A DNA stretch of 64,000 nt from Clostridia bacterium. Lineage in GTDB: Bacteria > Bacillota > Clostridia > Oscillospirales > CAG-382. This document shows, one piece after another, positions 3,382 through 44,016 of this stretch (positions are counted from its first letter, which is position 1; each line of letters begins with the position of its first letter). The stretch is taken from contig JAFRPL010000014.1 in assembly GCA_017429165.1 (NCBI GenBank), positions 130,113 through 194,112 on the forward strand, written 5' to 3'. The position numbers and the translations under genes were made by a program. The notes beneath the pieces are model-generated. The model had not been told where the DNA came from. It searched no databases and was given only the letters and a program-made list of their open reading frames with translations.

Positions 3382-3906
3382 TCAACGGTATTCGGATTTG
3401 AGTTTTTGAAGCGCGCGCTTGTATTTTTTGCGCACGGCTTCGGCGGTGAGCCCCAGAGTTTCACCTATTTCGGCGTACCTGAAACCTTCGGCGGTTTTGA
3501 GCGTCACTATCTGCCGTTCTGTCTCCGGCAGGGACGAAAGCAGGTCTTTCAGCTCGCATTCGGCGGTGAAATCGCCCTCTTCCGCAACGATCGCCTGGCT
3601 TTCTTCCACGGGGACGTTTCTGAGCCTTTGGGCCTGGATATCCAACGCGGCGTTGCGGGCGATCGCCATGACCCACGCGCGTGCGTTGCCCTTTTCGTCA
3701 AAGCTCGCTGCGTGCCGCGCCACTTTGAGAAAAGTGTCCTGCATGGCGTCTTCGGCGTCGGCGCGGTTATTAAGTATGGTAAGCGCCAGCGCGTAGATCT
3801 GTCTGCCGAGCTGTTCGTAAAGCACGTCAAGACGCTGCATATTCCCCTGCGAAATTTCGGTTATCGCCTTTGCGCACAAGGCGTTCGCCGAAAAGATCGG
3901 CTGCAT
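3382..3906 (-). CDS. ECF-type RNA polymerase sigma-70 family factor
   Basis: Region 2-like DAEDAMQDTFLKV...ARAWVMAIARNAALD and region 4-like LPETERQIVTLKTAEGFRYAEIGETLGLTAEAVRKKYKRALQKL. Start chosen at the ATG at 3906, which has GGGGTGAG upstream. Confidence 0.85.
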   Translation of the reverse strand: MQPIFSANALCAKAITEISQGNMQRLDVLYEQLGRQIYALALTILNNRADAEDAMQDTFLKVARHAASFDEKGNARAWVMAIARNAALDIQAQRLRNVPVEESQAIVAEEGDFTAECELKDLLSSLPETERQIVTLKTAEGFRYAEIGETLGLTAEAVRKKYKRALQKLKSEYR

Positions 3907-4018
3907 GGACTCACCCCGTTTCAGGTCTTTCGTAATATAATACCGCGAAAAAAGGAAAAAGCGGACAAAAAATTTTGTTCCGCTTGAAATTTTATCATAT
4001 TTTTTCGGATTTGTCAAA

Positions 4019-13813: not shown

Positions 13814-13831
13814 AAAAGCATAAAGAAAAGA

Positions 13832-13860
13832 AAGCCGTTCCTCGCCGGAACGGCTTTTTC
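13832..13860 (+). terminator. Rho-independent terminator
   Basis: Stem aagccgttcc / ggaacggctt, loop tcgcc, then TTTTT. Confidence 0.8.
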
Positions 13861-13943: not shown

Positions 13944-13977
13944 AGAACTAAGAACTAAGAACTAAGAACTAATAACT
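13944..13977. repeat. Heptanucleotide tandem repeat (aagaact) x4-5
   Basis: tagaactaagaactaagaactaagaactaataact, read directly. Confidence 0.9.
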
Positions 13978-13987
13978 TCAGAGGCTT

Positions 13988-14093
13988 TTCGCCTTGCGGC
14001 GAAAAGCTGAATTGCTCGCATACGCTCGCAGCTAAAACATTTGCCTTGCGGCGAAAAGCTGAATTGCTCGCATACGCCCGCAGCTAAATTAAA
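13988..14093. repeat. Two tandem copies of a 53-nt unit
   Basis: ttcgccttgcggcgaaaagctgaattgctcgcatacgctcgcagctaaa at 13988 and ttgccttgcggcgaaaagctgaattgctcgcatacgcccgcagctaaa at 14041. The first copy folds as cttttcgcc-TTGC-ggcgaaaag. Confidence 0.9.
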
Positions 14094-14099
14094 TTCGCT

Positions 14100-14186
14100 T
14101 TTAGCTCGGCGCAGCCGTATTTAGCTCGCGTTAGCGAATTTAGCTCGCGTAAGCGAATTTAGCTCGCGTTAGCGAATTTAGCTGCG
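14100..14186. repeat. 19-nt tandem array (tttagctcgcgttagcgaa), giving TTAGC pentamers phased at 9-10 bp
   Basis: TTAGC occurs at 14101, 14121, 14131, 14140, (TAAGC at 14150), 14159, 14169 and 14178. Inverted GCTAA occurs at 14031 and 14083. Confidence 0.9.
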
Positions 14187-14298
14187 ACCGCCGCCGCGCT
14201 GTAACGATTTGTCGCTTTACTTTTGGCGCGATTTGTGGTTTAATGATAACGGTAAACGAGATCCCGGCCGGAAAACGTTACCGAAAGGAGGGCGGCGA

Positions 14299-14751
14299 TT
14301 GGAAACAGGCAGAATAATATCCGAACTGCGTATAAGCGCGGGGCTGACCCAGGAAGAACTTGCCGAACGTCTTTACGTTTCGCGCACGCTGGTGCAGAAA
14401 TGGGAGACCGGCAAACGCAGACCCGGCAAAAGCGATCTGGAATCCGTTGCGGCGATACTCGGCGCCGATCGCGGCGTTTTTTGTGAAAAAGACGACGGGA
14501 TAATGGCCGAGCTTGAGTCGTGCGTTCCGGAAAACTGCGGTATGACCGAAGAAAGCGTGATACCTCTTTTGGAAAACTTTTTGCAGACGCTGCCGCCGAG
14601 AGAACGCAATATCTTTATAAAACGTTATCATTTCCTGCGTTCCGCAAAAGAAATAAGCACGGAAACGGGGATACGCCAGGGACACGTGCGCACCATACTT
14701 TCGCGCACGAGATCCAAACTGAAAGAGTATTTTAAGGAGAATATAAAATGA
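14299..14751 (+). CDS. Chimeric regulator: XRE-family HTH fused to a sigma-70 region-4 domain, with no region 2
   Basis: AAGGAGG lies 7 nt upstream of the TTG at 14299. XRE HTH is ISELRISAGLTQEELAERLYVSRTLVQKWETGKRRP. The region 4-like part is LPPRERNIFIKRYHFLRSAKEISTETGIRQGHVRTILSRTRSKLKEYF. The start codon is uncertain (the ORF is open from 14209). Confidence 0.7.
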   Translation: METGRIISELRISAGLTQEELAERLYVSRTLVQKWETGKRRPGKSDLESVAAILGADRGVFCEKDDGIMAELESCVPENCGMTEESVIPLLENFLQTLPPRERNIFIKRYHFLRSAKEISTETGIRQGHVRTILSRTRSKLKEYFKENIK

Positions 14752-16724
14752 ACGCAAACACTCTTTACGACGCTTTTGCAAAAATAAGCGATTCGCTCAC
14801 CGATACCGCTTACGAAGCGAAAAAACCCGAACGCACCAAAAACTTCAAAACCATCGCGATCGCCGCAGCGGCGCTGGTCGTGGCCGCCGCTGCAATATTC
14901 GCGATCCCGGCGTTCCGCAGCGATCCGAATAACGTTTCCGCCGTCGAAGACACGTCGGAAGTTGATGACAGCAACGTATTATACAGGTCGGAAAACGGCG
15001 AATTCGTCGTGCGCGTCGTCGAGCCGCTGGAAAAGCCAATATGTAGTAATAGTCTGTGGGTGCCGATTTCAGACGGCTTAATGCGCGAAGCCACTGATGT
15101 GGTTTTGGGAACTATAACTAACGTGACTGAAATCTTTTTTGAAACCGAACATAAACCTGACGATTGGTATATCGAAGGTGTCGGGTATGTCACTGATCTT
15201 TCACGATATCGTTCACTAGTAACAGTTAAAATCAAAGATACCATAAATGGCAATCTTTCAGCAGGGGAATCTGTGACTTTTATATTCTACGCTTCTTCTC
15301 GGAACGCCGAGTATACTGCAGGTTACTCGGAAATACTGCCGATTACAGGGGACGAATACGTATTTTATCTGAAAAAGACTGCGGAACTGGATTCCGGCCA
15401 TTTTTACATTCCGATCGCAGATTATTATTATTGCTTGACTGGTCCCTGTTTTGTACCATACGACGAACCGCAACGTCCTGAACTGCTGGCGGTCATAGGA
15501 GCCGAAGAAGGCGCTTGCGGTGAGGAATTTATAGAAGCGCTTGCGAATTATTATGCCGACAGTAACGGAAACGTACTTTACCGTTCCGAAAACGGCGATT
15601 TCGTCGTGCGCGTCGTCGAGCCGCTGGACGTGCCGAAGGTTTATAACTATTTATGGGCGCCCATAACGGACAATATGCTGAATTCTTTTTCGACCGTCAT
15701 AACCGGAACGATAGAAAAGGTGGAAGAAATAGAGATCTCTTACAGCCTTTTTGATCAAGACCTTACCGCTTACTGGTCGCTCCTTACCGTGTCTGCAGAC
15801 GACGTCATAAAAGGAAACGGCGACGTGATCAAGGGCGAGACCGTGAGCGTGCTGTTCGAATTATCCACCCATTCGGCAAATGAAGACAATATTTATCCCC
15901 TGGTAAACGAAAAATACGTTTTCTTCCTTAATAAGACGTCGGAGCTCAAGAACGTTCCGGATTATTCGTCGATCGCCGATTATATGTATGAAATGACCGG
16001 AGATGCGTTTATTCCCCTTGACGAACCTCAAAATCAGCGGCTTTCAGAGATTTTGGGCAGCGAGGATAATTTCGGCGAGAAGTTCGTTGAAGCGCTTGCG
16101 AATTATTATGCCGGCAGTAACGGAGACGTACTTTACCGTTCGGAAGACGGCGATTACACGGTGTGGAAAGTCAATCCCGATAGCCTTTCCGGGGTTAGGT
16201 CAGCCGCTTGCTGGGTGCCGGTAGACGACGAGATGCTTCACAGAGCGAGCGACGTGGTCGTGGGGACGATCAAGGACATTACGGATATATATATCGAGAC
16301 CGGGGATCACGATTATTTAGAAACCCAATACGGCGTCATCGACCTTTCAGAGGTCGATCGTTACAAATCGCTTGTAACCGTGGAAGTGAAAGAAACGATC
16401 AACGGCGATATCGCCGAAGGCGAAACCATCACTTTTGTGTACGAATCGCCTTTGGCGAGCTATCCGAAAAACGTATCGTCAAGCTTATGGGGCGATGAGT
16501 CCGCCATAGTAGGCAGAGATTACGTATTCTTTCTTAAAAAAACTTCCGAAAAGGACTACAAGTTCGATCTGACGCCGATCGCGGCTTACGCATACGGCAT
16601 TATCGGGCCCTGCTTTGTTCCGTACGACGAGCCGCAGGATGCATCCCTGCTGGAGACAATCGGCGCACAAAAAGGCACTTGCGGCGAAGAATTCATTGAA
16701 GCGGTGAAAAAATATTATGAATGA
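14748..16724 (+). CDS. Single-pass membrane protein with three ~190-200-aa internal repeats; it occupies the anti-sigma position
   Basis: ATGA overlap with the upstream gene. The N-terminus has a short cytoplasmic peptide plus the TM AIAAAALVVAAAAIFAIPAF. It contains three copies of NVLYRSENG(E/D)FVV...YVF(Y/F)L(K/N)KT...FIEALANYYA. Confidence 0.8.
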   Translation: MNANTLYDAFAKISDSLTDTAYEAKKPERTKNFKTIAIAAAALVVAAAAIFAIPAFRSDPNNVSAVEDTSEVDDSNVLYRSENGEFVVRVVEPLEKPICSNSLWVPISDGLMREATDVVLGTITNVTEIFFETEHKPDDWYIEGVGYVTDLSRYRSLVTVKIKDTINGNLSAGESVTFIFYASSRNAEYTAGYSEILPITGDEYVFYLKKTAELDSGHFYIPIADYYYCLTGPCFVPYDEPQRPELLAVIGAEEGACGEEFIEALANYYADSNGNVLYRSENGDFVVRVVEPLDVPKVYNYLWAPITDNMLNSFSTVITGTIEKVEEIEISYSLFDQDLTAYWSLLTVSADDVIKGNGDVIKGETVSVLFELSTHSANEDNIYPLVNEKYVFFLNKTSELKNVPDYSSIADYMYEMTGDAFIPLDEPQNQRLSEILGSEDNFGEKFVEALANYYAGSNGDVLYRSEDGDYTVWKVNPDSLSGVRSAACWVPVDDEMLHRASDVVVGTIKDITDIYIETGDHDYLETQYGVIDLSEVDRYKSLVTVEVKETINGDIAEGETITFVYESPLASYPKNVSSSLWGDESAIVGRDYVFFLKKTSEKDYKFDLTPIAAYAYGIIGPCFVPYDEPQDASLLETIGAQKGTCGEEFIEAVKKYYE

Positions 16725-16831
16725 GTACCGGCGCATAAAAGGGTGCGCTTTGTACCTTGACATTTGCAAATTTTCAGATATACTGTAACTGAAAGGCAAA
16801 GAAGTCTGAACGCGATATAAAGGAGATCGTT

Positions 16832-17422
16832 ATGAAAAAGCCGCTATCGCTTGCCATGGTATGCCTGCTGCTCGCCGTTTCCGCTTTTACGTTTATCGCC
16901 TGTGGAACCCGGACCGACGACGGATCCGACGGATCAAATCACGGCAGGCTTGTCGAGATATCTTATGACGCGTCGACCGGCGCTCATTATTATTCCACAA
17001 AAGAATCTATGCAAGAACGACAAAGCAAAATAGTTCAGTTGACGCCGGAACAGTTATCGTTGCCCACGGGCGAACTGGTGGATCTGATCCTGGATTTTCC
17101 GTTTTGGACCGAGTATTTTTCATCCACATCCCCATATGCCAAAACTTATGAAATAATCACAACCGCGTACGAATATAACGGCTTTGCAGAATTAGAAAAG
17201 AGGCCGGATTCCTCAAACGCGATGCTTTGCAGGTTTAAGGAACTGGTAAAAGAGTCGGATTACGGATCGCTTCACGCTTCGTATCTGTATTTCATTCTTT
17301 CCACGCCTGTTTATTATGATCGGTTGACGCCGGAAGAGCTTGCCGAATTCGAGTGCGTTTGCGACGAGTATAATACGGCGCATACTCGGCATGATAATGT
17401 ATCAAATGAAAACGGATCCTGA
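16832..17422 (+). CDS. Hypothetical lipoprotein
   Basis: AAGGAG RBS. Signal peptide with the lipobox FTFIAC|G. I recognise no domain. Confidence 0.65.
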   Translation: MKKPLSLAMVCLLLAVSAFTFIACGTRTDDGSDGSNHGRLVEISYDASTGAHYYSTKESMQERQSKIVQLTPEQLSLPTGELVDLILDFPFWTEYFSSTSPYAKTYEIITTAYEYNGFAELEKRPDSSNAMLCRFKELVKESDYGSLHASYLYFILSTPVYYDRLTPEELAEFECVCDEYNTAHTRHDNVSNENGS

Positions 17423-37755: not shown

Positions 37756-37774
37756 AACCCAAGAGCGCATTAAA

Positions 37775-37868
37775 GCGGTGATTTACGCACCGTGATTCAA
37801 TACTGTTTAATGCCCGGAGGCTTATTTGCCTCCGGGTTTCGTTTTTGCATATATATCAGTTCCGCCTT
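37775..37868 (+). repeat. Copy 1 of a 94-nt direct repeat containing the pckA terminator
   Basis: Identical to 37983-38076 except at 2 positions. Contains the hairpins cggtg-atttacg-caccg and cccggaggc-ttattt-gcctccggg. Confidence 0.9.
37813..37846 (+). terminator. Rho-independent terminator (copy 1)
   Basis: Stem cccggaggc / gcctccggg, then tttcgttttt. Confidence 0.8.
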
Positions 37869-37982: not shown

Positions 37983-38076
37983 GCGGTGATTTGCGCACCG
38001 TGATTCAATACTGTTTAATGCCCGGAGGCTTATTTGCCTCCGGGTTTCGTTTTTACATATATATCAGTTCCGCCTT
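37983..38076 (+). repeat. Copy 2 of the 94-nt direct repeat
   Basis: See copy 1. The offset between the copies is 208 nt. Confidence 0.9.
38021..38054 (+). terminator. Rho-independent terminator (copy 2)
   Basis: Same hairpin and T-tail as copy 1. Confidence 0.75.
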
Positions 38077-38085
38077 TTTCGCATA

Positions 38086-38114: not shown

Positions 38115-38188
38115 TTTTATGAAAAGTGAAACCTTCTCCTTATTTTTTCGTCTTAATAAGTGAAAGCGGCTTTCGAAAGGAACATTTC

Positions 38189-38752
38189 ATGAGCATTCCG
38201 GAATATCTGCCAGACAATGAAATAGTCAAGCTGTTTTACGCGCGCGACGAACGCGCCCTGAGCGAGACCGCCCGCAAATACGGCGCGCTCTTCCGCTCGG
38301 TCGCCAACAATCTGCTGCAAAGCGTTCCCGACGCAGAAGAATGCGAAAACGACGCGTATCTGCGGCTGTGGAACGCCATACCGCCCGCCGAGCCAAAAGA
38401 CCTTGGGGCATACGGCGTGAAGATAGCGCGCAATCTTGCGCTGGACGCGGTAAAAAAGCGCACTGCGCAGAAACGCGGCGGATGCGCGGCGATAGAAGAG
38501 CTCTGCGCGGATTTCGACGACGTCCCCGACACTGCCGCCGACGGGCGCGAGCTCGGGGAACTGCTGGATGAATTCCTGCGCACACAGGAAAAATGCGACC
38601 GCGTGATGTTTGTGCTGCGCTACTTTTACGGCGAGCCGCTCAAAAAGACAGCCGAAAGATGCGGGATCAGCGAAAGCGGAGTCAAGACGCGCCTGTTCCG
38701 CACCCGCCAAAAACTCAAATCCTTTTTAAAGAAGAAGGGAGTAACTGTATGA
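38189..38752 (+). CDS. ECF-type sigma-70 family factor
   Basis: Region 2-like DAEECENDAYLRLWNAIPP...GVKIARNLALDA. Region 4-like CDRVMFVLRYFYGEPLKKTAERCGISESGVKTRLFRTRQKLKSFL. Start at the ATG at 38189. Confidence 0.85.
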   Translation: MSIPEYLPDNEIVKLFYARDERALSETARKYGALFRSVANNLLQSVPDAEECENDAYLRLWNAIPPAEPKDLGAYGVKIARNLALDAVKKRTAQKRGGCAAIEELCADFDDVPDTAADGRELGELLDEFLRTQEKCDRVMFVLRYFYGEPLKKTAERCGISESGVKTRLFRTRQKLKSFLKKKGVTV

Positions 38753-41700
38753 AAAACGAAAAATTCATGCGTTCGGTAGGCGAAATAGGCGACGACCTGC
38801 TGCAGGAAGCCGCCGGATACAAAGCCGAAAGCAAGGCAAAAGCCAATGTCCCGGCGCCGCGCGGCAAACTGTTCCGCCGGGCGGGACTCATCGCCGCCGT
38901 GCTCGCGGTAGTGATAGCCGCCGCGTTCGTGATACCCGCGCTGTTCAGGCAGCCGGATCATGTAAAGATCGAGATCCCGCCCGATAACGGAATCATCTTA
39001 AAAGGCGGCGCCTACAGCACCGACGCGAACGCAAACCTGCCTGAATCGCTCAGAGAAATAGAAGTGCTCGCCAACGGCTCGGGCGAAAAGCTTATGGCGA
39101 CCGATTCCACGCTGGTCGTAAAGACCGCCGCGGAATGCGACACCGAAACGTTTGTCAAATACGTTTCGGTCACCCCCGAACTCCCCATGGCGGTGACCAA
39201 AGTCAGCGCCACCGAATTCCATTTGAAACCGGCGCAGACCGCGTTCGCGCCCAACACGCTTTACCGCGTGACGGTGGGCGATCCGCAAAACCCCGCCGCA
39301 AGCTTTGCGTTCCAGACGGTGAGCGAGCTTGCGATAAAAAACATACTCCCCGGCGCGGGCAGCACCGAAGTTCCCGTGAACACGGGAATAGAAGTCACCT
39401 TCACAGATTCGGTGAAGAACGCGGATTTTTCGGATTATATCACTTTGACGCCCGCGGTCAGCGGCAAATTCATGCTCTACCCCAACGGCAAGACCGTGGC
39501 GTTCATACCCAAAGAGCCGCTGGAATACGATTCGGTCTATACCGTCACCGTTAAAGAAGGGCTCGAATCGATCTCCGGCAAGCCGCTGAATGCCGGCCGC
39601 ACCGCGGTGTTCCGCACGGAGGGTCCGGACGAAGACACGCAGTTCGTAAGCTGGATAACCGCCTCGGCGAACGGTTCGCGCAAGGCGATGTTTACTCCCG
39701 GCGATCCGTATTCGCTCGGAAGCTTCGTGGAATACACCGCGGAAATCTATTACAACGACGTGAGCCGCACGTTTGCCGAGCTTCCCGCCGGTCAGGTCGC
39801 TCTCACCGCGACTTTCTACCGCGCCGTTTCGTGGGATTCCGTAGCGGAAGCCGTTACTCAGCTGCTCAGCAGCGATTTTGCCGCCGATTACGACGAAAAC
39901 GCGCTGCTCGACAAATATTTTGAAAAGGTCGACGAAATAGAGTTCGAGCCCAAAGACGGAGTGTTCAGATACAATTGTTCGTACACGCCCGAAAAAGAAG
40001 GCTTTTACTACACCGTTATTACCGCCCGGAAAAACGGCACAGTCCGCACTTTCCGCGACGTGTTCCAGATCTCCAATCTGCGCCTCGGCGGCACGGCGAT
40101 CGACGGCAAAGCGGTCGTAGTCGTTTCGTACGATAACGGGGCGCGCGTCGCAGGCGCGACCGTAAAAGGCCTGCGCTTCAGCGAAAATGCGTTCTACGAA
40201 AGCGTAAACCGCCCCGAAATGACCGCGTTCGAAATAACGTGCGGCTCCGACGGCACCGCGGTGCTGGAATACGGCGCGGGCAACGCGCTGGCGTTCATCT
40301 ACACCGACGGCGAACGCTCGGCGCTGGCGCTGAAAAGCGTGCCGGGATTCGACGATAACGATTACTATATCAACACGCTTTACACCGACCGCAGCGTGTA
40401 TTTCACCAACGACGCCATCAACGTATGGGGCACGCTTAAAGGCCTTTACGGCGCGGAAGTGCCCGAAGAACTGTATGTCTTCACCGGTTTTTCTTCGGTG
40501 GGGACGCCCGTGACCGTGAGCGAAGACGGTTTCTTCAGCGCGAGCCTGAAAATAGAAAACGTTATGCGCACCTACACCTATGTGCGCGTAGAAGACGCGA
40601 ACGGGATCGTACTCGCCAACACGATGATCAGCGTGACCGAGGAAGAAAAGCCCGTGATCAAAGCGGAAATGAGCTTTGAAAAGCCATATTATTTTTACGG
40701 CGATACGGCGGTCGCCACGATAAGAGTCACGTTCTACGACGGCACGCCCGCCGAAGGTTACGAGGTGAGCGCGCGCTGTTACGAATTCGACGGCGACTAC
40801 GGCAAAGTGACCGACGAAAACGGCTGCGCCACGTTCCGTATAAAGACGGGCAGCGTGAATGCGAACTCGACGAACCCGTGGACTGTCAGCGCTTACGCGT
40901 ATATCAGCGGCGAAGGAGTCGATACGCTGCGCTGCGCGGCGTCGTTCGTGTATTTCCATTCCGATTACGTGCTGGCTTATGAAGGCCGAGTCATAAAGCT
41001 CAACGAGCTCGACCGTTCCAAATGCCCCGAATACGCCGCGGGCAAACCGGTCACCACCAAACCGGGAAACGTCGGAGCGGGATCGCTTGAATACGCCCTT
41101 ATTCAGGTCAAATACAACGTATACACCTATACGGAATACGATATGTATCTCAAACGCAGCGTGGAGCGCACACGCTCCGAACGCATCGAGACCTGCGAAG
41201 AACAGGGCAAACTGTATTTTGAAGACGGCAGGATAGAACTTAAAAAGGTCGATTACGACCCGGAAAAGTACTACTACTATTACAGACTGTACTTCACCGA
41301 CGCGCACGGGCGCTACGAATTCACAGTCCCGGCCCGCGATTACGATGATTCTTATTACACCCGCTATTACACCTATTACGACCGCGCGTATACCGTAGTG
41401 CTGGATAAAGACGCGTACCTTCCGGGCGACACCGTGAACGCCAGGTTCATATACGGTGAAACGAACAACTGCCCCGAACCCGTGCTCGTATTCACCGGCA
41501 CAAGCTATATCAGCCACACGAGCGGCAGCGAAGGCGCGGAACTGTTCACCGAAGAACGGCTTCCCGAAATGCGCGTGACGGCGCTGTTTTTCGACGAAAT
41601 CAGAAAGAGCTGGCGCGCGGCAGGATCGACCGCTTCGTATGATTACGGCAGCGCTGTCGACGGCGAGATAAGCGTCAAGACCGACAAAGACGTCTATAAA

Positions 41701-44016
41701 CCCGGCGACACCGTCACGGTCACCGTGACCGCTCCGCAGCTTGCGGGCGGGAAAGCGCTTATAAGCATTGTGGACGAAGCGTGCTTCGCCTTGGGCGAAA
41801 ACGCGTACAGTCTGCTTAATTACCTCAAATCGAGCGGCTATTTCGCGTCACAGTCTTATATGATCCGTTCTTACAATGCTTACAATGAATATAGGTACCG
41901 CGGTTATATTCAGGGTTATCACACCGGCGGAAGGCTCACTTCGTTTTCCGATATCCCGCTTTCGCGCCTGATCGGCTCGAAACTCGGGGGCAATTCCGAT
42001 TATATATATATCGACGGCAAAATGTATAGGTATGAGTACATGGAAGCAGAAGCGGAAGCGCCCGGAGACGCCGTCAACACGGAAGGCGAAAAATCGTACT
42101 ATGTGCGCGAAAACTTCGCCGACAACCCCGTTTTTGCACAGCTCGAATTCGACGAAAACGGCACGGCGACGCTGGTATTCAAGGTACCGGACAACCTCAC
42201 GACCTGGCGCGTGACCGCGCTGGGCATAAAGAATGCGGAAAAATTCAGCGACATCCGCATTGCGCAGAGCACGGGCGATCCCGTGTGCACGCTGCCGTTC
42301 TTCGTAAAGACCGATATGTGTTCCACCTACGTCAAAGGCGACGACATTGCGCTTTCGGTCCGCTGCTTCGGTACAAAAGCGCAGGGACATGCAAATTATA
42401 CGGCGGTGATATGCGACGCTGAAGGCAGCGAGATAGCGCGCAAAGAGGTTTCCGGCGACACCAAGGCGTTCACCGGAGTCAATTTCGGCAAGCTGGACGC
42501 AGGCGATTACAGTCTCACCGTTTACGCCGACTGCGGCGAATACACCGACGCTTTGAAGAGCACGTTCAGAGTGGTGACTTCCACGCTCGCGGTAGACGCT
42601 GTGGCGACGGTCACCTTGGACGAACTCAAATCCCTTAAAACGCTCGCATACCCCGTGAACGTGGTCGTAAGCGCCGGCGGAAGCGATTCGTTCTATTCCG
42701 GGGTGCTCGGCAGTCTCTATTACTCATACGGCGAACGCGCCGACGCGCTGGCGGCGAAATATGCCGCGGCGGTCATAATGAAAAACGTCTACGGCGGCGA
42801 TTTCGGCATTTCGGATATCGAAAGCAAGTTCGAATCGTTCTGCGGGACGGCCGGCGTCAAGCTTTTGCCTTACGGCGAAGCGGACGTCGAATTGACCGCT
42901 CTCATTGCGGACGTCGCTCCGGAGCTTTTGGCAGGAAAACTCACTGCTGCCGATCTGTTTGCAAACAAGCTTAACCGTAACGTGTTCCAAAGCGACGTGG
43001 AGCTTTGCGCTTCGATATACGGACTCGCCGCGTGCGGCGAACCCGTGCTCGACGTGCTGTACACGGTATCGTCGCAGGCCGGCGACTACAGCGACGAAGC
43101 CAAGTTTTACCTTGCGTGCGGATTTGCCGCAGCGGGCGATTATACCGCCGCGGAAAGCATCTATTCGCAAATAGTCGGCAAACTTGCGGTCGGCGTTGAA
43201 AACGCGATGTACCTCAAAGGCGCCGACGAAGACGCAAAGATCAAGCTCACTTCCCTTGCGCTGGTCGTCGCTTCGCGCATCAGGCGTTCCGACGCGATCA
43301 GATTCGCGCGCTACGCGGTAAGTATCCCGAACACGCACGGCGAAGCCGCGCATCTGGGACTTGCGGCGTTTGCAAAGTATTATCTGCCCGCCGAAAAGCA
43401 GGAACTGCAGAATATAAGCTACACTCTCGCCGACGGCGTTAAGCACGAGTCCGCAATAGGGTTCGGCAAGCAGCTTTGCCTTACGCTTTACAAATCGGAT
43501 CTCGAATCGCTCGTCCTTGAAGGGTGCGAAAACGCCGCGATAACCGTGCGTTACAGCGCGAGCGCCGCCGAGGCCGCGCGCGATTACGGCAAAGGCAGAG
43601 TGAAAGTGCAGAAGACCGTAAGCGGCGACGTGGTGACGATAACCGTTTCGGGTACTTCCAACAGGTACTGGGAATACTTCTCGTTCGACGACGTCATCCC
43701 TTCGGGCGCCCGCCTGCTCTACACTTTCAACCACGGCGACTACGCCAGAGGCAGCAACGCGACCGCGTATATCTACAACCGCGCCGGTCAGCGGATGGAA
43801 GGCCACATTTCGGTATCGGCCCCCGAAAGCTACTTTAAAAACTACCGCAAAGACAACACGGAATTCTGCAAGCAATATTCGTTCTCAGTCACCGTGAGTT
43901 ACCGCATACGCAAGGCGGTCAGCGGCGAGTTCAAGGTGGAACCCGCGGTGGTCGGTTCCGAATACAGCGAAGTATTTGAATTTTCAACAGGCAGTACGAC
44001 CGTTGTTTACGATTGA
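38749..44016 (+). CDS. Giant (1755 aa) single-pass membrane protein with an alpha-2-macroglobulin-like ectodomain; it occupies the anti-sigma position
   Basis: ATGA overlap with the sigma gene. TM is AGLIAAVLAVVIAAAFVIPALF. A bacterial Ig-like domain is present (ILPGAGSTEVPVNTGIEVTF...YTVTVKEGL). The A2M hallmark VPDNLTTWRVTALG is followed by LPFFVKTDM..GDDIALSV. The C-terminal FDDVIPSGARLL completes the pattern. Confidence 0.8.
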   Translation: MKNEKFMRSVGEIGDDLLQEAAGYKAESKAKANVPAPRGKLFRRAGLIAAVLAVVIAAAFVIPALFRQPDHVKIEIPPDNGIILKGGAYSTDANANLPESLREIEVLANGSGEKLMATDSTLVVKTAAECDTETFVKYVSVTPELPMAVTKVSATEFHLKPAQTAFAPNTLYRVTVGDPQNPAASFAFQTVSELAIKNILPGAGSTEVPVNTGIEVTFTDSVKNADFSDYITLTPAVSGKFMLYPNGKTVAFIPKEPLEYDSVYTVTVKEGLESISGKPLNAGRTAVFRTEGPDEDTQFVSWITASANGSRKAMFTPGDPYSLGSFVEYTAEIYYNDVSRTFAELPAGQVALTATFYRAVSWDSVAEAVTQLLSSDFAADYDENALLDKYFEKVDEIEFEPKDGVFRYNCSYTPEKEGFYYTVITARKNGTVRTFRDVFQISNLRLGGTAIDGKAVVVVSYDNGARVAGATVKGLRFSENAFYESVNRPEMTAFEITCGSDGTAVLEYGAGNALAFIYTDGERSALALKSVPGFDDNDYYINTLYTDRSVYFTNDAINVWGTLKGLYGAEVPEELYVFTGFSSVGTPVTVSEDGFFSASLKIENVMRTYTYVRVEDANGIVLANTMISVTEEEKPVIKAEMSFEKPYYFYGDTAVATIRVTFYDGTPAEGYEVSARCYEFDGDYGKVTDENGCATFRIKTGSVNANSTNPWTVSAYAYISGEGVDTLRCAASFVYFHSDYVLAYEGRVIKLNELDRSKCPEYAAGKPVTTKPGNVGAGSLEYALIQVKYNVYTYTEYDMYLKRSVERTRSERIETCEEQGKLYFEDGRIELKKVDYDPEKYYYYYRLYFTDAHGRYEFTVPARDYDDSYYTRYYTYYDRAYTVVLDKDAYLPGDTVNARFIYGETNNCPEPVLVFTGTSYISHTSGSEGAELFTEERLPEMRVTALFFDEIRKSWRAAGSTASYDYGSAVDGEISVKTDKDVYKPGDTVTVTVTAPQLAGGKALISIVDEACFALGENAYSLLNYLKSSGYFASQSYMIRSYNAYNEYRYRGYIQGYHTGGRLTSFSDIPLSRLIGSKLGGNSDYIYIDGKMYRYEYMEAEAEAPGDAVNTEGEKSYYVRENFADNPVFAQLEFDENGTATLVFKVPDNLTTWRVTALGIKNAEKFSDIRIAQSTGDPVCTLPFFVKTDMCSTYVKGDDIALSVRCFGTKAQGHANYTAVICDAEGSEIARKEVSGDTKAFTGVNFGKLDAGDYSLTVYADCGEYTDALKSTFRVVTSTLAVDAVATVTLDELKSLKTLAYPVNVVVSAGGSDSFYSGVLGSLYYSYGERADALAAKYAAAVIMKNVYGGDFGISDIESKFESFCGTAGVKLLPYGEADVELTALIADVAPELLAGKLTAADLFANKLNRNVFQSDVELCASIYGLAACGEPVLDVLYTVSSQAGDYSDEAKFYLACGFAAAGDYTAAESIYSQIVGKLAVGVENAMYLKGADEDAKIKLTSLALVVASRIRRSDAIRFARYAVSIPNTHGEAAHLGLAAFAKYYLPAEKQELQNISYTLADGVKHESAIGFGKQLCLTLYKSDLESLVLEGCENAAITVRYSASAAEAARDYGKGRVKVQKTVSGDVVTITVSGTSNRYWEYFSFDDVIPSGARLLYTFNHGDYARGSNATAYIYNRAGQRMEGHISVSAPESYFKNYRKDNTEFCKQYSFSVTVSYRIRKAVSGEFKVEPAVVGSEYSEVFEFSTGSTTVVYD

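Follow-up and report, generated by a model that had tools for sequence, protein, structure and literature searches.

The 64,000-nucleotide stretch of DNA analysed here (the window; positions 130,113 to 194,112 on the forward strand of contig JAFRPL010000014.1, assembly GCA_017429165.1, from a Clostridia bacterium of the Oscillospirales, CAG-382) carries at 14299-14751 a small gene whose product joins an XRE-type helix-turn-helix (HTH) to region 4 of a sigma factor, followed by a gene for a membrane protein, its putative partner. The features of this locus are collected in Table 1. The fusion gene is preceded at 14286-14291 by the ribosome-binding sequence AGGAGG, 7 nt upstream of its TTG start codon. 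In the Pfam scan of the product, HTH_3 was detected at residues 7-56 with 49.8 bits against a cut-off of 23 (E 3.4e-13), Sigma70_r4 at residues 95-143 with 48.5 bits against 24.1 (E 6e-13), and Sigma70_r4_2 with 43.8 bits against 25.7 (E 2e-11). The same scan gave no match to Sigma70_r2 at E <= 1, whether the protein was read from 14299 or from an upstream TTG at 14209, and none to the LytTR domain. Likewise, the NCBIfam model for sigma-70 factors of the extracytoplasmic function (ECF) type, TIGR02937, is covered by the fusion only at profile positions 110-164, i.e., the last 55 positions, which correspond to region 4. These profile hidden Markov models bear out the original prediction made for this gene, namely that an XRE HTH stands in place of region 2 and that the C-terminal half is a region 4 akin to that of the ECF sigma factor encoded at 38189. 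It had also been stated that the protein has none of the core-binding or -10-melting region; the absence of region 2 stood, but the statement on core binding was too strong, because region 4 itself contacts the beta-flap of RNA polymerase in sigma factors. Extension of the reading frame to 14209 brings no domain and crosses the conserved promoter and operator (14201-14244) as well as the 5' untranslated region (UTR), and every member of the family uses a start methionine equivalent to 14299; therefore, a cryptic region 2 is excluded.

The AlphaFold2 model of the fusion shows two helical domains with a conserved linker helix between them, with a predicted local distance difference test (pLDDT) score of 92. 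The XRE domain is a canonical five-helix HTH_3 of the Cro/C1 type, and in the Foldseek comparison it resembled the N-terminal domains of C.BclI, SinR, ImmR and CapH, with root-mean-square deviations of 1.1-2.2 over approximately 60 residues. When the whole two-domain fold was compared with the PDB only single-domain XRE matches were obtained, and the sequence search of the PDB matched each domain separately, never both in one structure.

This architecture is shared by a family of proteins. Word-index searches, either with the whole fusion, which returned five relatives, or with its C-terminal half, gave close relatives only. The survey was widened by an exhaustive profile search of 1.8 billion cluster representatives, of which the best 150 were considered; among these (clusters at 50% identity), about 60 proteins of 143-175 residues matched the whole profile in one stretch, and all the cluster members come from metagenome-assembled genomes of uncultured Clostridia of the gut and rumen. 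HTH_3 was found in 58 of 58 aligned relatives and Sigma70_r4 in 55, and Sigma70_r2 in none. The names that these proteins carry at their sources are divided between 'helix-turn-helix domain-containing protein', 'transcriptional regulator with XRE-family HTH domain' and 'sigma-70 family RNA polymerase sigma factor'. A DNA-pattern scan of one genome per species confirmed 104 loci; among their hosts, from rumen and gut, are Ruminococcus, Acutalibacteraceae, Oscillospiraceae and unclassified Clostridia. Several paralogues are often present in one genome, and even in one contig. Synteny with an M3 peptidase gene, located upstream in the window, is retained in the closest relatives of the window locus; the third gene of the family loci is variable, and no protease gene is conserved across them. 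Full-text searches of the literature, the coverage of which is incomplete, gave no description of this XRE-sigma-4 fusion family, which appears to be widespread and unstudied in gut and rumen Clostridia. In four of the loci (L050, L054, L056 and L066), from bins assigned to Paludibacteraceae, Butyricicoccaceae, Phascolarctobacterium and Muribaculaceae, the modules resemble one another closely and carry one and the same 21-nt operator, a distribution that points to bin contamination or to a mobile element that crosses phyla.

Regarding the ancestry of the sigma half, the C-terminal half of the fusion is identical to the ECF sigma factor encoded at 38189 in 22 of 58 residues (38%; BLASTP E 6e-10), and an hhalign comparison of the family C-terminal profile with this factor gave E 5e-17 over 72 columns, reaching into the linker between regions 2 and 4. 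The other ECF sigma factor of the window gave E 3e-7, thus the one at 38189 is the closest sigma factor in the window. A local chimera was also considered; the search with the C-terminal-half profile recovered dozens of fusions at 81-121 bits ahead of the first true ECF sigma factor, at 41-43 bits, which rules out a one-off derivative of the 38189 gene. Because the fusions outrank every true ECF factor, the sequences indicate that the fusion is a single, old event followed by diversification into a family with many paralogues, so that a recent origin from the ECF gene nearby does not apply.

The partner gene starts within an ATGA overlap with the fusion gene, as had been noticed originally, and its product has a cytoplasmic N-terminus of 34 residues, one transmembrane segment (approximately residues 35-56) and a large ectodomain. 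A coupled downstream gene on the same strand is present in about 76 of 80 family loci, mostly with a -4 nt overlap. At these loci the layout matches that of anti-sigma factors, which are co-transcribed with their targets and have a short N-terminus in the cytoplasm and a single transmembrane segment. Across the family the N-terminus of the partner forms an amphipathic helix (MNgxdLFnAisxIDExLIdRa) followed by a basic stretch and by the transmembrane segment at residues 30-48, and the ectodomains, of 150-824 residues, vary fully in length and sequence. When the window was scanned with a regular expression for this N-terminal layout, exactly two genes were found: the partner gene at 14748 and the gene at 38749, which is coupled to the ECF sigma gene at 38189. 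In the window partner the ectodomain (14973-16721) is made of three tandem repeats of approximately 190 residues that share 36-48% identity and gave no match in Pfam; the number of repeats varies, since the orthologous partners are shorter (377-459 residues). In the 38749-44016 protein, of 1755 residues, Big_5, A2M, MG2 and bMG10 domains come after an anti-sigma-like N-terminus and a transmembrane segment; an alpha-2-macroglobulin-like ectodomain is unusual as the sensor of an anti-sigma-type protein.

The upstream 100 nt of the window gene are almost invariant with respect to its orthologues, whose proteins are only 69% identical. Comparison of the family loci revealed an asymmetric element, GnTRCGTTTTGTMCC, upstream of 81-82 of 82 family genes and at a fixed distance from TATAAT. 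In detail, this element of 15-18 nt reads G1 n T/A3 A/G4 C5 G/A6 T7 T8 T9 T10 G11 T12 C/A13 C14 C15, and it is directly followed by T16 T17 K18 A C A, i.e., a -35 hexamer (TTKACA), and then by 16 nt (23 loci) or 17 nt (54 loci) to the -10 element, which is a perfect TATAAT in 50 loci and matches it at five of six positions in 28. Conserved positions in the position weight matrix (PWM) include G1 (0.98), C5 (0.86), T12 (0.98), C15 (0.97), T16 (0.98) and T17 (0.96). The operator is therefore placed at about -50 to -36, flush with a -35 of the sigma-A type. The centres of its two half-sites lie approximately 10 bp apart, a spacing with which both HTHs would occupy consecutive major grooves on the same face of the double helix. 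The distal half-site occurs in the family as TGAAAC, TGTAAC, TGCAAC, GGTAAC and GGTGCG; several of these variants resemble ECF -35 elements, including the TGAAAC of the ECF-type promoter of the 38189 gene (TGAAAC-N16-CGTC at 38127-38152). At many loci the -35 hexamer is poor, e.g., TTGCGG, TTTCCC, TTGTTA or TTTATT. An inverted repeat in the 5' UTR of the window gene (14250-14283), also kept in loci L001-L003 and L085, might form an RNA hairpin or be a further protein-binding site.

A scan of 545 kb of loci on both strands with the PWM gave 89 matches of at least 16 bits, approximately 80 of which lie upstream of family genes. Among the others, most precede additional paralogues (L015, L038), accompany the main site as a tandem copy (L041) or lie 5' of divergent genes for secreted proteins. 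Loci L018, L032, L037 and L040 have, around 3899 on the minus strand, a second operator that is near-identical to the autoregulatory copy and precedes a divergent gene for a secreted protein of 525 residues with dockerin-like repeats, which hints at cellulosome-related targets. In the 64-kb window only two strong operator matches were found, 14201 and 16742; the second immediately follows the partner gene, 90 nt before the gene at 16832, the product of which is a predicted lipoprotein.

To relate the two heads of the protein to the two half-sites, all variable protein columns were compared with 14 operator positions, using mutual information with average-product correction on 67 sequences of less than 85% identity. 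The top four pairs joined residue 30 to position 13, residue 136 to position 2, residue 40 to position 11 and residue 132 to position 4. According to the helices of the AlphaFold2 model, residue 30 opens the recognition helix of the XRE domain and residue 40 is in the loop that follows it, and residues 132 and 136 are in the recognition helix of the sigma-4 domain; the location of these residues pairs the XRE head with the proximal half-site and the sigma-4 head with the distal one. The combination D30/C13 occurs in 46 loci and E30/A13 in 30, against four cases of E-C and none of D-A. On a neighbour-joining tree, parsimony counts 17 changes at residue 30 and 14 at base 13, and 10 of 14 phylogenetically independent D/E30 contrasts were concordant with base 13, versus 1-2 of 14 at control positions. 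R40 accompanies G11 in 73 loci and S/N40 accompanies T11 in nine, with zero exceptions and three of three independent contrasts concordant; K136 accompanies G2 in 28 of 28 loci. Contacts between arginine and guanine, and between aspartate or glutamate and cytosine or adenine, are common in protein-DNA complexes. The idea that the protein has two DNA-binding modules, already part of the original prediction, thus gains comparative support from the asymmetric operator and from this covariation, which is robust for the XRE head. For the sigma-4 head, the ECF -35-like appearance of the distal variants indirectly favours the same assignment. A simple link between the unusual GTCGC half-site of the window and the T30/Q33 pair of its subfamily was not supported, given that L085 has the same residues and GTCCC, and that L084, with A30/Q33, has GTCGC. 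In L084 (100-140 and 659-2119; subfamily P0006), a single example, the linker is approximately 7 residues longer, the half-sites appear 2 bp wider apart (GTTACAAAAATTGTCGC) and the partner ectodomain is a VWA domain.

Table 1. Coordinates of the fusion locus and of the ECF sigma operon used as a comparator; positions are those of the window.
Feature	Position	Strand	Remarks
Intrinsic terminator of the upstream M3 peptidase gene	13829-13859	+	Stem of 13 bp and a T run; delimits the transcription unit on its 5' side
Operator	14201-14215	+	GTAACGATTTGTCGC
Distal half-site	14201-14206	+	GTAACG (motif positions 1-6); ECF -35-like; proposed target of the sigma-4 HTH
T-rich spacer and proximal half-site	14207-14215	+	ATTT-GTCGC (motif positions 7-15; family TTTTGTMCC); proposed target of the XRE HTH
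Core promoter	14216-14244	+	-35 TTTACT (14216-14221); 17-nt spacer; TGn (TGg) at 14236-14238; -10 TTTAAT (14239-14244)
Inverted repeat in the 5' UTR	14250-14283	+	CGGTAAACG...CCGGCCGG...CGTTACCG; just 5' of the ribosome-binding site; read from the sequence
Coding sequence of the XRE-sigma4 fusion	14299-14751	+	150 residues; TTG start at 14299, stop at 14749-14751
XRE HTH of the fusion	14317-14466	+	
Linker helix of the fusion	14494-14517	+	ELxxC(I/V)PE
Sigma region 4 of the fusion	14569-14727	+	
Coding sequence of the membrane partner	14748-16724	+	658 residues; start inside the ATGA overlap with the fusion gene
N-terminal helix of the partner	14748-14813	+	MNANTLYDAFAKISDSLTDTAY
Transmembrane segment of the partner	14850-14915	+	Residues 35-56
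Ectodomain of the partner	~14973-16721	+	
Second operator and promoter	16742-16784	+	GGTGCGCTTTGTACC (operator 16742-16762), then TTGACA-N16-TATACT (promoter 16757-16784); PWM 22.5 bits; promoter scan 11/12
Candidate target gene	16832-17422	+	Predicted lipoprotein of 196 residues; no family match
Comparator ECF sigma gene	38189-38752	+	38127-38752 with its promoter; Sigma70_r2 and r4 matches
Partner of the comparator ECF sigma	38749-44016	+	ATGA-coupled; same motif type, MKNEKFMRSVGEIGDDLLQEAA; transmembrane segment near residue 39; alpha-2-macroglobulin-like ectodomain

Built on the computed architecture, family, gene coupling, operator with its position and residue-base covariation, the explanation that we favour, and hold to be reasonably probable, is that of an ECF-derived factor without region 2 that has two DNA-binding heads, acts on sigma-A promoters and is held by an anti-sigma-like membrane partner. 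The two coupled genes would derive from an ECF sigma/anti-sigma pair and form a module for signalling across the membrane; region 2, with which a sigma factor contacts the beta' coiled coil and opens the -10 element, would have given way to an XRE-type HTH, and the product would no longer be a sigma factor. The two-headed factor is probably monomeric on its asymmetric site: the sigma-4 HTH would read the distal, ECF -35-like half-site (GnTRC; GTAACG in the window), and the XRE HTH the proximal one (TTGTMCC; TTGTCGC in the window), roughly a helical turn further downstream. Since the operator is flush with an ordinary sigma-A -35, the factor would act on the sigma-A holoenzyme.

As to the control of the factor, we infer the interaction with the partner, the sequestration and the sign of the regulation. 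The N-terminal helix of the partner would bind and sequester the factor, by analogy with ECF/anti-sigma pairs and given the shared motif, so that the partner, formed by a cytoplasmic helix, a transmembrane segment and a variable extracellular sensor, may keep the factor bound to the membrane until it is released by a signal. The freed factor may then activate its own operon, in a positive feedback as in the ECF and LytTR systems, as well as nearby genes for secreted proteins. A broader proposal, whose chances we judge to be even, is that these modules make up a distinct and widespread class of transmembrane signalling in Clostridia of the gut and rumen, in which an ECF sigma factor was turned into a monomeric two-headed factor working through the sigma-A holoenzyme. 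In this proposal the sigma-4 domain would be a pure reader of duplex DNA beside the XRE head, and a simple, evolvable code would pair D/E at residue 30 with C/A13, R40 with G11 and K136 with G2. Paralogue arrays with differing ectodomains (repeats, VWA and others) would wire extracellular cues to genes for secreted, dockerin-type and lipoprotein products.

Several results weigh against this explanation. The geometry of one domain relative to the other is uncertain in the AlphaFold2 model, with a predicted template modelling score (pTM) of 0.59, and none of the loci belongs to a cultured host. The link between the sigma-4 head and the distal half-site counts few independent events, with two contrasts for residue 136 and position 2 and one of two concordant for residue 132 and position 4; this link is clean as an association and weak as independent evidence. 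The half-sites of the second window operator (GGTGCG and GTACC) differ from those of the autoregulatory one (GTAACG and GTCGC), and because both half-sites differ the lipoprotein gene at 16832 may answer to another paralogue or to a relaxed specificity. In the covariation between factor and partner, 24 of the 40 top pairs fall in the sigma-4 domain versus approximately 17.5 expected, which weakly favours this domain, the proposed reader of the distal half-site, as the docking domain. The N-termini of the partners were below threshold in every curated anti-sigma model tried: DUF4179 gave a weak match under its cut-off (E 0.0027-0.024), NF052375 'antisigma' matched three of 26 partners far under its cut-off (best E 0.0013), and CnrY one of 26 at E 0.05. 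Because no curated model matches at threshold, the kinship of the partner with anti-sigma factors is argued from its layout and from the N-terminal motif common to the partner of the true ECF factor at 38189, and the membrane sequestration put forward in the original prediction is kept here in the conditional. Finally, the core promoters are near consensus (TATAAT, a spacer of 16-17 nt and often TTTACA), and promoters of this kind usually call for repression, not activation.

This last point leads to the strongest of the rival explanations, according to which the two-headed factor is an autorepressor: bound at -50 to -36 it would reach the TT of the -35, where it would compete with region 4 of sigma-A or over-stabilise the closed complex, and sequestration by the partner would derepress the operon together with its targets. 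Besides the near-consensus core promoters, with TATAAT in 50 of 82 loci and the TTGACA-16-TATACT promoter at 16757-16784, it is consistent with the conservation of T16 and T17, higher than a -35 alone would predict, and with the fact that XRE-family proteins are mostly repressors. However, co-translation at 1:1 with a sequestering partner would leave such an operon constitutively on when no signal is present, and this stoichiometry fits a positive feedback; the poor -35 hexamers of many loci are as expected in activator-dependent promoters; and sites flush with the -35 are typical of activators, as for lambda cI at PRM and for the LytTR systems (PMC6193735). For these reasons activation is favoured, and among the readings with a two-headed factor it is a good deal more probable than repression. 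Repression, unlikely as we consider it, stays a serious rival because of the near-consensus -10 elements and the strong promoter at 16757-16784.

A second rival keeps the two-headed factor and gives the partner another role, either as a tether or co-activator with which the factor works at the membrane, like a ToxR or CadC in two pieces, or as a protein that merely stabilises the factor. Translational coupling implies a 1:1 stoichiometry also in this case, and neither a curated anti-sigma domain nor a protease gene conserved in the loci was detected. Nevertheless, the N-terminal motif is common to the partner of a bona fide ECF sigma factor, where inhibition is the established role, and the cytoplasmic part of approximately 30 residues is enough to cap a surface and little more; we regard this alternative as distinctly improbable.

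A residual or split sigma function is unlikely, and ranks lower still. In this case the fusion would provide -35 recognition and beta-flap binding together with a separate region-2 protein, or the XRE head would itself substitute for region 2. The good scores of region 4 on sigma models, the annotation of some members as sigma-70 family factors and the sigma-like polarity on the DNA, with sigma-4 upstream and the N-terminal domain downstream, are in line with this idea. On the other hand, the half-site centres are approximately 10 bp apart and not 23-24 bp, and a complete, separate -35/-10 of the sigma-A type follows at fixed spacing. A crude three-sequence profile of region 2, run as an HMM against all the open reading frames of the window and of 83 loci, recovered ordinary ECF sigma factors located elsewhere and nothing else; beside the fusion genes there was no region-2 reading frame, except an ordinary ECF factor at a distance of 2.4 kb in L057. 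The third gene is not constant among the loci. Moreover, an XRE HTH is not known to bind the beta' coiled coil or to capture flipped -10 bases. The weakest rival, which we find hardly credible, proposes that the sigma-4 domain is a decoy that titrates the anti-sigma factors of related ECFs, in the manner of an anti-anti-sigma factor such as PhyR, with the XRE head alone binding DNA: the partner motif of the same type at 38189 and the precedent of PhyR as a sigma-like mimic are compatible with it, but the conserved distal half-site (G1 and C5) needs a reader and covaries with the sigma-4 recognition helix, and every fusion gene has its own dedicated coupled partner.

Returning to the two-headed, partner-held activator, it can be compared with several known systems. 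With the ECF (group 4) pairs, such as 38189-38752 and 38749-44016, it shares a homologous region 4 and part of the linker between regions 2 and 4, the gene order and ATGA coupling, the type of N-terminal motif of the partner with its single transmembrane segment and variable ectodomain, an ECF -35-like distal half-site and the many paralogues per genome. It differs in the lack of region 2, in a second head that is an XRE HTH proposed to bind duplex DNA one helical turn away, and in a promoter of the sigma-A type (TTKACA-N16/17-TATAAT) in which the AAC-like element is approximately 10 nt further upstream, and no AAC-N16-CGTC is present. With neither region 2 nor an ECF-type promoter, the fusion falls outside the ECF sigma family.

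The canonical five-helix HTH_3 domain is the one found at the N-terminus of XRE/Cro-cI regulators, e.g., lambda cI, the 434 repressor, SinR and the C-proteins, and an operator adjacent to the -35 recalls lambda cI at OR2/PRM. In this group a homodimer on a dyad-symmetric operator is typical, albeit not universal. In contrast, no dimerisation domain was found in the fusion, each promoter has a single asymmetric operator that is not palindromic, the second half-site is apparently read by another fold of the same chain, and there is a dedicated membrane partner. By its domain the family belongs to the HTH_3 superfamily, in which it is atypical for the asymmetric site and the heterologous second head.

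Another system to be considered is SigO-RsoA (YvrI-YvrHa) of Bacillus subtilis, a two-subunit sigma factor that needs a separate region-2-like protein encoded alongside. Common to both is a protein with a sigma region 4 and no functional region 2; the difference is that no region-2 protein was found beside the fusions with the crude profile, and that the fusion promoter is complete and of the sigma-A type.

The closest working analogue is that of the LytTR regulators with membrane inhibitors, which bind repeats just 5' of the -35 of their own operon and establish a positive feedback (PMC6193735). These systems, i.e., HdrRM and BrsRM of Streptococcus mutans, have been presented as a sensory class apart from the two-component and ECF systems (PMC6193735). 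Like them, the module described here is a two-gene operon for a regulator and a transmembrane protein, with a site just upstream of its own -35; unlike them, its folds are XRE and sigma-4, unrelated to LytTR, its site is single, asymmetric and bipartite instead of a set of direct repeats, and its ancestry lies in the ECF factors. At its input the module would behave like an ECF sigma/anti-sigma pair, and at its output like an XRE regulator in a class II position or a LytTR system. The logic of a transcription factor with a membrane inhibitor is already known, and what is surprising is the exaptation of region 4 together with the retention of an anti-sigma-like control.

If this interpretation is correct, the family documents how a sigma factor can evolve into a conventional transcription factor and leave the anti-sigma layer of control intact, and it implies that sigma region 4 can be a free-standing reading head next to an unrelated HTH in one chain. 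Classification schemes for ECF factors need regions 2 and 4, so they may miss XRE-sigma4 fusions. The code between residues and bases, along with the compact operator-promoter, could give orthogonal membrane-gated switches for Firmicutes, and the variable ectodomains and the dockerin-repeat and lipoprotein targets suggest extracellular sensing in fibre-degrading communities of the gut and rumen.

Some additional features of the window were observed. Between the peptidase terminator and the operator, tandem repeats occupy 13944-14190: a 7-nt unit (AGAACTA) in four copies, a 52-nt unit in two (13988-14088) and a 19-nt unit in three to four (14109-14183); L001-L003 and L085, where the orthologous intergenic region spans only approximately 165 nt, lack these repeats. 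A second ECF-type sigma factor is encoded at approximately 3385-3990 on the minus strand, and since the N-terminus of its downstream membrane partner is different (MGIKRKIKNSYEGLNVPEKERV...), this genome has at least two types of partners. Upstream of the ECF sigma operon at 38189, a direct repeat of approximately 95 nt, noticed by eye, is present at ~37768-37862 and ~37983-38077, with a GC hairpin followed by a T run.

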